Assembly: GCA_001938485.1 (NCBI GenBank)
Contig: MQRK01223826.1
Location: forward strand, 6,352-70,351
DNA: 64,000 nt
Direction of reading: 5' to 3'
Source of the DNA: Girardia tigrina
Lineage: Eukaryota
In this document: in pieces, positions 47,769 through 60,237 of the stretch
Layout of the letters: each line of letters opens with the position of its first letter
Position numbering within the stretch: position 1 is the stretch's first letter
Made by a program: the position numbers and the translations under genes
Notes under the pieces: generated by a model
Seen by the model: the letters and a program-made list of their open reading frames with translations, nothing else
Told to the model about the DNA's origin: nothing
Database searches by the model: none

Positions 47769-47989
47769 ATTGATTTTAGGATCAAAAGATTTGATCAACA
47801 ATGCTTCACACATCACCCTCTCCCAGTAATTATCAAATTGTGAACACAAAATCTTAAAATTACTTACATCAACTTTACTATAAAGTTGATGTAAGTAATT
47901 TTAAGATTTTGTATTCACAATTTGATAATTACTGGAAGAGGGTGAAATGTGAAGCATTGTTGATCAAATCTTTTGATCCTAAAATCAAT
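47769..47989. repeat. Near-perfect palindrome of PLE GIY-YIG sequence
   Basis: ~109-bp arms around 47878-47880; right arm reads NFKILYSQFDNYW...CEALLIKSFDPKIN. Confidence 0.9.
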
Positions 47990-56749: not shown

Positions 56750-58203
56750 TATCAACCAATAAGCGTTACAACACCATCCTCGATCTTAGAAACCATCTGG
56801 TGTCTTTCCCACATCACGACCATTTCTTCTGGCAACTTCTACAACAACAGATGATACAGAAAACCGTTGCCTTGCTCGCCGATCTTACGCAAGTCTCACA
56901 AGCGCAATACGAGGCTCTCCAGCAGAAACAAAAACATGTACAGTTGTTTCACATCTTGATATATCTTTCTAAAATCGGTTACCTTTTTCATAATGGCCGT
57001 GTAATTCCGACTATCACTTCGGTAACGTTTTTCCAGTTTTTCCAACATTTCACGCTATGCTTCTCCGCCGAATCCGAAATTCCGCACAAACACTCGTGCT
57101 TAACCTTCCAAACATTCTTCCAATTATAGTTGCTTATCGACTTCAGGAAGGTTAACTTTCCCAACACATTCATCAAAGGTTTTACGCCATTTTCGGTACT
57201 CCATGATCTTCCCGTAGAATCGAGGCAGCTCAAGCCTCTTCAATCTGAACTTATTCAAATCACAATTTGAAGCCATCGTTGATTCTTTCGTCACCAGAGT
57301 TGAAGAACTGTTAATTTCCTTTTTTCTCTGATTTCCAAATATTTTCCAGAATTTGTTGTATTTCTCATTGATCTAGTCTTATTCTTTGGATAATTTGTTT
57401 GCTTCATCTTTATTTTTATTTTATTTTCTGATTGCTTCCTTCTTCCCACTGCGTTTCTGACTTTTCGTCCTTTATGCTATCTTTTTCACTCCCTCCTTGC
57501 AAACACAAGACGAAATGGAGTGTAGAGTCCTTCTGAATGTTATAATCACCCAAAGTTTTTCCGTTCTCGAGTTATTTCCCAGCGAAAACCAATTTCTGTT
57601 GATCAGGAGGAACACCTTCTTTATCCAAAACTTTTTCCTTGATATTTTCCATTGTTTCGCCTGACTCAACTTCTAAGACAAGTGTTTTACCGGTTAGCAC
57701 TCTAATAAAAATTTGAGATGTGACATAGGATTTAGTTTCGGAGTCGTGTTGATCGGTCGTTTGTTTGAATGAGATAACGGGGCCCATTTCCACGTTATCC
57801 ATCCAGAGAGCTATTTTGACGGACTCCTCTGATTTGAATTCGATGCAAGCGGAAATTGAGTCGACATTCCCATCGCATGAAAGACAATTACCGAAATTTT
57901 TGAATATATTCAACGCGCACTTGTCCTTATCATAAACCTTATCAATCACAACAGATTTACCGCGAAATTCTCCATTTCGATACGATCGATCGAATATCGT
58001 CACACACGAATCCCGAACGATCCAATTTCGTTTAATTTCAATCTCCGATCGATCTTCTCTGATTGTTTCGTTTATTTCTTTCGTACTATCTTTCACGTTT
58101 GATAATCTCATGCAATCCGATTGAAGCGCGATCAGTTTTGAGTCTTTCAATGCAATTTTTTTAACCTTTAATTTATTTTTTTTACATTTTTGCTATTTGG
58201 CAT
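56750..58203 (-). pseudogene. Decayed chimeric ORF: RRM-like + ubiquitin + BEL/Pao Gag (DUF1759-like)
   Basis: RRM-like IFKNFG...[15 protein letters not shown]. Ubiquitin at 57718-57491 (76 codons, one TAA, ends GG). After a 1-nt frameshift near 57420: RLKRLELPRFYGKIMEYRKWRKTFDECV...LPEVDK.L*LEECLEG*AR...LEKLEKRY...LL*KLPEEMVVMWE. Confidence 0.8.
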
Positions 58204-59825: not shown

Positions 59826-60237
59826 TAACTTTATTTCACTTTTCCTTAAAATTAAGAAAAATTTACTAAATGCAATCAATCTCATTCTCGCAAACCAACT
59901 ATTGGCAGCTATCAATTGCCATTTGAGAAAATGATATGTTTTCTCTATCGTTCCGTACTTTACAAGGTAACGGAGACATATGATAAAGATGACAACTAAC
60001 AGCACACCAAAAGCTAATCTTTGAGATGAAACTTCTTACACTCAATACAATCAACTTAATTTTAACCTTCCCATCAAACTCATATGTCTACGTTACCTTG
60101 TAAAGTACGGAACGATATAGAAAACATATCGTTTTCTCAAATGGCAATTGATAGCTGCCAATGGTTGGTTTGCGAGAATGAGATTGATTGCATTTAGTGA
60201 ATTTTTCTTAATTTTAAGGAAAAGTGAAATAAAGTTA
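59826..60237. repeat. Long inverted repeat (158-bp arms, 96-bp spacer)
   Basis: 59826-59983 is the reverse complement of 60080-60237 with a few mismatches; the right arm runs into an N gap. Confidence 0.85.

Follow-up and report, generated by a model that had tools for sequence, protein, structure and literature searches.

A BEL/Pao retrotransposon clade of Girardia tigrina with a ubiquitin-type domain before Gag and host mRNA pieces in its LTRs

Background

The elements described here share with the BEL/Pao retrotransposons (Belpaoviridae) a DUF1759 Gag, the order protease, RT, Peptidase_A17 and integrase in one frame, TG...CA LTRs with a 5-bp target duplication, a polypurine tract and a tRNA primer site. 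They differ from them in a ubiquitin or ubiquitin-fold domain (ending in RGG) before Gag, in a frame that starts in host mRNA sequence within the LTR and, in one branch, in CCCH fingers. A frame that begins in the LTR is known from the copia-type element Ty1 of yeast, whose Gag frame passes through the tRNA-Met primer site and has a start codon of its own. This arrangement is shared, whereas Ty1 has neither captured host pieces nor ubiquitin. In a paper on BEL/Pao elements (PMC3118150), the word 'ubiquitin' occurs 0 times.

LTR-mediated retroposition by template switching has been described by Tan et al. 2016 (PMC5131818). Its chimeras resemble ours in that spliced, partial host mRNA is joined to the element, that mosaics of several genes occur and that short words are shared at a junction. 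However, the pieces there take the place of sequence within the ORF in non-autonomous chimeras, whereas those reported here lie within the LTR, in at least about 40 places each, and in phase with Gag.

Ubiquitin within a polyprotein is known from cytopathogenic pestiviruses, where captured ubiquitin acts as a processing signal and host hydrolases free an authentic N-terminus (PMC8310069). Variable upstream sequence and a GG before the downstream protein are further likenesses. The pestivirus insertions are sporadic recombinants of an RNA virus, whereas we describe a fixed and exchangeable module that spans Gag lineages only 32–59% alike, is coupled to LTR captures and is putatively cleaved. 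In engineered Gag-ubiquitin fusions (PMC2958808), ubiquitin is C-terminal, lacks its GG and was built to stay attached; in the elements described here it is N-terminal and the GG is kept. Among the papers listed in full-text searches, none described a ubiquitin-Gag fusion in LTR elements or in-phase host 5' ends in LTRs; an earlier account may exist in repeat databases such as Repbase and GyDB or in subscription literature. The new aspect is likely to be how the BEL/Pao Gag frame begins and how it is probably processed.

Results and discussion

The ubiquitin-Gag fragment in the window

The DNA analysed (the window) is a stretch of 64,000 nt from the Girardia tigrina assembly GCA_001938485.1 (contig MQRK01223826.1). 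A sequence-only reading had noted an RRM, a ubiquitin and a Gag in succession on its minus strand (56750-58203). The ubiquitin was confirmed: a domain of 76 codons lies at 57718-57491 (Pfam E 1.5e-24), without Met at position 1, with one internal stop and with the ending LCLQGG, where the family has RLRGG. The identity of 51/76 that had been counted fits our alignment, which gives 52/76 against the polyubiquitin unit of this genome and one fewer against human ubiquitin. Alignment with relatives places the start of Gag directly after the GG, with Ser as first residue (57490-57414). The remainder of the charged N-terminal Gag linker follows at 57413-57220 (translation and alignment), then the DUF1759 core, likewise as had been read (57219-56797, Pfam E 1.2e-13), and the final Gag residues (56796-56761), where the copy ends; family homology stops at 56771-56761. 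The Gag frame holds seven stops, some of which interrupt DUF1759, so that the copy has eight in all. What had been taken for a single 1-nt shift near 57420 is really a 149-nt deletion with its breakpoint at 57414, as judged against L002, L008 and L016, the three of six relatives that aligned cleanly; the windows of the other three gave no consistent alignment.

Upstream of the ubiquitin, the 3' remnant of the element's leader (57913-57719) corresponds in alignments with relatives to the last two thirds of an RRM-like segment. Comparison of copies sets the beginning of family homology at 57913-57915, and the DNA beyond it belongs to another repeat; 58203-57914, including the first strand of the presumed RRM, is therefore not family sequence. 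This other repeat is present in two pieces (58496-58153 and 58144-57913), with 80–91% matches in many contigs. It is an unclassified high-copy repeat with an internal deletion at this place, and no protein family was found in it. As a candidate for the family's LTR it was rejected. Neither ubiquitin nor Gag occurred in any of its 14 fetched copies.

For the RRM-like domain that had been read at about 57955-57780, there is no Pfam match in the window copy, and full-length RRM-like segments in relatives score 17.4 and 18 bits with RRM_1, below the cut-off of 20.7. Their match to a solved structure is weak (Nab3 RRM, E 0.8), and a model of the segment (pLDDT 33) shows a partly fitting order of helices and strands and was too poor for a fold search. 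The piece is present in one group of lineages only. The RRM appears to be a weak, optional remnant, and a succession of RRM, ubiquitin and Gag is not supported as the defining architecture.

No primer site was found in the window, even with up to three mismatches allowed, and the copy has no zinc fingers, Pol or LTR. It is a truncated, dead, LTR-less fragment of a BEL/Pao retrotransposon. Elsewhere in the window, 47769-47989 and 59826-60237 are long, near-perfect inverted repeats with arms of 109 and 158 nt, which are probably MITE-like.

Family size and anatomy

A 501-nt probe gave at least 45 matches in the genome (40 of 91 candidates scored). With the unbroken natural frame of one copy as query, we obtained at least 107 protein matches (101 of 4187 candidates scored), many of them free of stops from ubiquitin through DUF1759. 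Ubiquitin, linker and Gag recur in this order in dozens of copies, and the fusion is a trait of a multi-copy family whose Gag lineages are 32–92% identical to one another.

The relatives supply the anatomy that is missing from the window. DUF1759 was found by Pfam in the window and in relatives. RT and Peptidase_A17 are present in L069 and L084, the latter also with integrase domains. In these two relatives and in P0283, the domains stand in the order known from BEL/Pao elements, with a single frame that leads from Gag (DUF1759) and aspartic protease to RT, Peptidase_A17 and integrase. The primer site consists of 18 nt that are the exact complement of the 3' end of this genome's tRNA-Met plus CCA; we take this tRNA to be the initiator. 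Exact primer sites number 372 in the genome, compared to 0 for a reversed control. Solo LTRs are about 0.9–1.4 kb long, and four of eight had TG...CA ends and 5-bp target duplications. A polypurine tract precedes the 3' LTR in six copies. By all these tested features, the family is a clade of BEL/Pao LTR retrotransposons.

The copy on C227539 has two matching LTRs (92%). This is why the unlike LTRs of two other two-LTR copies, C223367 and C236717, are read as the outcome of later recombination or truncation. The former (L037/L038) has a coatomer-epsilon LTR at its 5' end, while at its 3' end a truncated Gag adjoins an LTR of the VAC14 type. The 5' LTR of the latter (L084) looks by eye as though assembled in series from pieces that also occur in three other LTR types (L157, L181 and L214). 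Two further variations concern the part downstream of DUF1759. Tandem CCCH zinc fingers follow it in one branch (L005, L065, L069 and P0283), and CCHC-like knuckles were seen by eye in another. L033 and L039/L040 (C227539 and C250359) are without RT, and their Gag or protease is followed by a long, repeat-like stretch rich in Glu; they are likely to be non-autonomous partners.

Host gene pieces within the LTRs

In intact copies, the ubiquitin-Gag frame extends upstream without interruption across the primer site and U5, and the front parts of this open frame are pieces of host genes: VAC14, PSMC2 and coatomer epsilon. The VAC14 piece corresponds to host exons 1–3, including the start codon, without the 57-nt and 4.8-kb introns. 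It ends inside exon 3, and the four-nucleotide word ATTT is shared at this one VAC14 junction. The PSMC2 piece corresponds to host exons 1–5 without the four short GT-AG introns and ends inside exon 5. Both begin at the 5' end. Of four host genes sought, these two were located; those for the Rab and SMC pieces were crowded out among the matches listed. The first PSMC2 host candidates had proved to be LTR copies or another gene. Pieces of VAC14, PSMC2, Rab and SMC each occupy at least about 40 genomic places. A full-length, intronless PSMC2, 67% like the host gene, was also seen in several copies (L289, C231973:1-6500, and L298), possibly from a co-assembled organism.

A wider sample of LTRs was drawn from 90 of the 100 primer sites at the head of the list. 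Upstream DNA was sufficient at 82 of them, which formed 48 clusters. Ubiquitin was seen in the fetched stretch at 37 of the 90 sites, many contigs being short, and some of the sites may belong to other elements. Among 100 stop-free sense segments from 50 LTR representatives there were 10 matches to host Pfam domains (SH3, PRMT, VAC14, ODR4, ThiF, DCB, HSP70, SMC, SNF and Ras) and one to a transposase, compared to a single match among 111 antisense segments, an innexin piece upstream of the primer site (L207:1327-1656). Beta-tubulin (residues 11–100) and HSP90 are two further captured pieces. Those of HSP70 and SNF derive from internal parts of the protein, which shows that captures are not always plain 5' ends. 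PRC1 and PKN were guesses at the identity of two leaders and were not confirmed; the labels PP1, cyclin and kinase, which we presumed for some leaders, were left out of the counts.

Contigs of four runs cover most of the intact stretch, and one of them bridges U5, primer site and leader. We do not count these contigs as proof of expression, since three of the runs are RNA by guess, no single piece spans the whole and neither start nor strand is given.

A model of how the Gag frame begins

We consider it probable that the frame is led by host mRNA sequence from the LTR and that host deubiquitinases cut after the GG of ubiquitin, which would free a uniform Gag. In this model, reverse transcription would switch templates to a co-packaged host mRNA and so bring pieces of it into the LTR. 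Translation would begin at the captured host start codon and run from the captured piece through U5 and the tRNA-Met primer site into ubiquitin (RGG) and Gag-Pol. Deubiquitinases would then remove the leader and leave Gag with a fixed first residue. A cleavable module would make any leader tolerable, so that the LTR could renew its sequence repeatedly; and if translation starts at the captured codon, only captures in phase would survive. The observed parts of this scheme are the anatomy and the spliced captures described above, together with phase bias, GG retention, selection and module swapping. Capture by template switching, initiation at the captured ATG and cutting after the GG are inferred, the first and the last by analogy with the systems in the Background.

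Reading frame across the primer site

In the 318 nt that precede the primer site, 41 of 58 loci have a sense frame with no more than one stop, compared to five with such a frame in antisense. Any captured coding piece has one open frame to begin with, and these numbers therefore weigh less than tests of phase. At all four gap-free sampled loci with a named host piece and ubiquitin (L096, L102, L209 and L214), both lie in one frame. The best frames above and below the primer site agree at 23 of 42 loci and in 16 of 28 LTR clusters (p 0.008 against an expectation of one third), while 12 of the 28 show no such agreement. A zf-A20 match in L082 is off frame. The frames of the HSP70 and SNF pieces depend on gap lengths, and the phase tests are small.

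These data bear on an alternative that we regard as unlikely, in which ubiquitin stands at the true N-terminus as a cleavable aid to expression or folding, as in the ubiquitin-ribosomal fusions, and translation starts downstream of the primer site, at an internal Met. Host pieces would then be passengers in the LTR or act at the RNA level only, as promoter, untranslated leader or small-RNA decoy. In many copies, in-frame Met codons do lie after the primer site and ahead of ubiquitin, where translation could begin internally, and 17 of 68 ubiquitin units keep Met1. A donor-like word, GTGAG, precedes U5 in several LTR types, so that splicing could bypass the leader. There is also no clear constraint at the protein level on the captured pieces, where silent changes among shared variants number 7 versus 6.0 and 5 versus 4.3 expected, numbers that give little power. 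On the other hand, Met1 is missing from 51 of the 68 units, and the frame agreement across the primer site counts against internal initiation. So does the finding that the frame through this site continues without stops into Gag, in a phase that differs between subfamilies (two phases were seen), and again in P0283. Initiation at a captured host codon is therefore preferred here. One result counts against a leader that is purely disposable: private variants of VAC14 show a slight silent excess (32 versus 22.6, p 0.014), which such a leader does not predict.

The ubiquitin module

At the junctions of linear ubiquitin fusions, cutting after the GG is established. Among 91 distinct ubiquitin-Gag junctions of the family, GG is kept in 69, RLRGG in 62, and Ser is the next residue in 82. 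By comparison, GG is found in none of eight junctions between ubiquitin and an upstream ubiquitin remnant, which probably share one ancestor. These remnants point to a capture from polyubiquitin mRNA. The idea that the GG serves as a processing site, already put forward in the sequence-only reading, is supported by its retention at the Gag junction.

That reading had also suggested that ubiquitin diverged under selection at the protein level before the window copy decayed, and this agrees with our results. Pairwise dN/dS declines from 0.48 among close copies to 0.15–0.25 among older pairs. Shared and private variants were treated separately in a test of silent changes that allows for the mutation spectrum. 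Among shared variants, silent changes in ubiquitin exceed the expectation both in the group of the window copy (33 versus 16.4) and in a near-host group (10 versus 5.9), as do those in Gag (25 versus 12.5). Private variants of ubiquitin and Gag are neutral.

A second alternative holds that Gag keeps its ubiquitin, which would attract ESCRT or other readers of ubiquitin for the traffic or release of particles, a use that the sequence-only reading had entertained. Of 68 units, 54 have retained L8, 58 I44 and 63 K48, and fused ubiquitin can replace late domains (PMC2958808). However, V70 is kept in just 40 of the 68 units, the domain that replaces ubiquitin in some lineages (see below) is only 20–25% like it, and no env gene was noticed in a general reading of the copies. 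The position at the N-terminus and the GG left in place are the opposite of the engineered design, and retention of the GG at the Gag junction favors cutting. We thus consider a retained ubiquitin quite improbable and return to cleavage after the GG as the more plausible fate of the module.

Exchange of the module between Gag lineages

The near-host type of ubiquitin requires at least six changes on a quick Gag tree, from which copies with less than 200 codons or more than three stops were excluded (L189 and L215 are too short). For example, L234 and L240 are 96% identical in Gag (after the GG) and 64% in ubiquitin, and L234 and L082 are 66% identical in the same part of Gag and 94% in ubiquitin. 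These sequence comparisons show that the ubiquitin module has been swapped between Gag lineages.

In L016 (1004-1310), L112, L189, L215 and P0283, the place of ubiquitin is taken by a divergent domain that also ends in RGG. It matches no Pfam family, and its scores in the ESM Atlas were all under 0.8. The predicted structure is nevertheless that of a ubiquitin fold (pLDDT 84; Foldseek E 2e-5, TM 0.71; VIA Z 9). L016, with this alternative domain, is the nearest relative of the window copy in the Gag tree. The features that stay constant are the ubiquitin fold and the GG that immediately precedes Gag.

P0283, an ENA record, encodes an intact Gag-Pol of 1926 residues with the alternative domain, in a frame that reads through the primer site. 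P0269, a JGI protein, combines ubiquitin with DUF1759. Both closely resemble lineages of this genome, and their source may be the same animal or a relative of it. Protein searches with ubiquitin in the query gave only polyubiquitin-like proteins and are uninformative on the spread of the fusion. A search with Gag only among long proteins gave no match, scans of metagenome and viral contigs gave none that was confirmed, and the ESM Atlas held no usable match for ubiquitin-Gag.

A domesticated capsid gene, as had also been proposed, or a ubiquitin pseudogene that happens to lie next to a Gag fragment would fit a window copy that lacks LTR and primer site and borders on the unrelated repeat, but these readings can be set aside as extremely improbable, since the order of ubiquitin, linker and Gag is found in dozens of copies, the relatives have LTRs, target duplications and Pol, and the locus is not a single-copy intact frame without LTR or Pol, as a domesticated Gag would be, but a dead member of a multi-copy family, broken by eight stops and a deletion.

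We would give slightly less than even weight to the wider proposal that this clade outsources its translation start: it would repeatedly incorporate 5' ends from housekeeping mRNAs in its LTR and begin Gag-Pol at the host start codon, and its module, an exchangeable ubiquitin or ubiquitin-fold domain, would be a universal adaptor for cutting by deubiquitinases.

Conclusions

If the model holds, the clade would represent a natural and stable ubiquitin-Gag fusion and a new route by which a retroelement starts translation. It would also account for the uptake of dozens of different host gene starts into an LTR without harm to Gag. The 5' ends of host genes are scattered across the genome, with 94 matches to one proteasome domain alone, which matters for gene annotation and exon shuffling. 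The turnover of LTRs into host-like sequence could shield the element from silencing by small RNAs. This opens the question whether such LTRs escape the piRNA pathway, or whether small RNAs are turned against the host genes instead.
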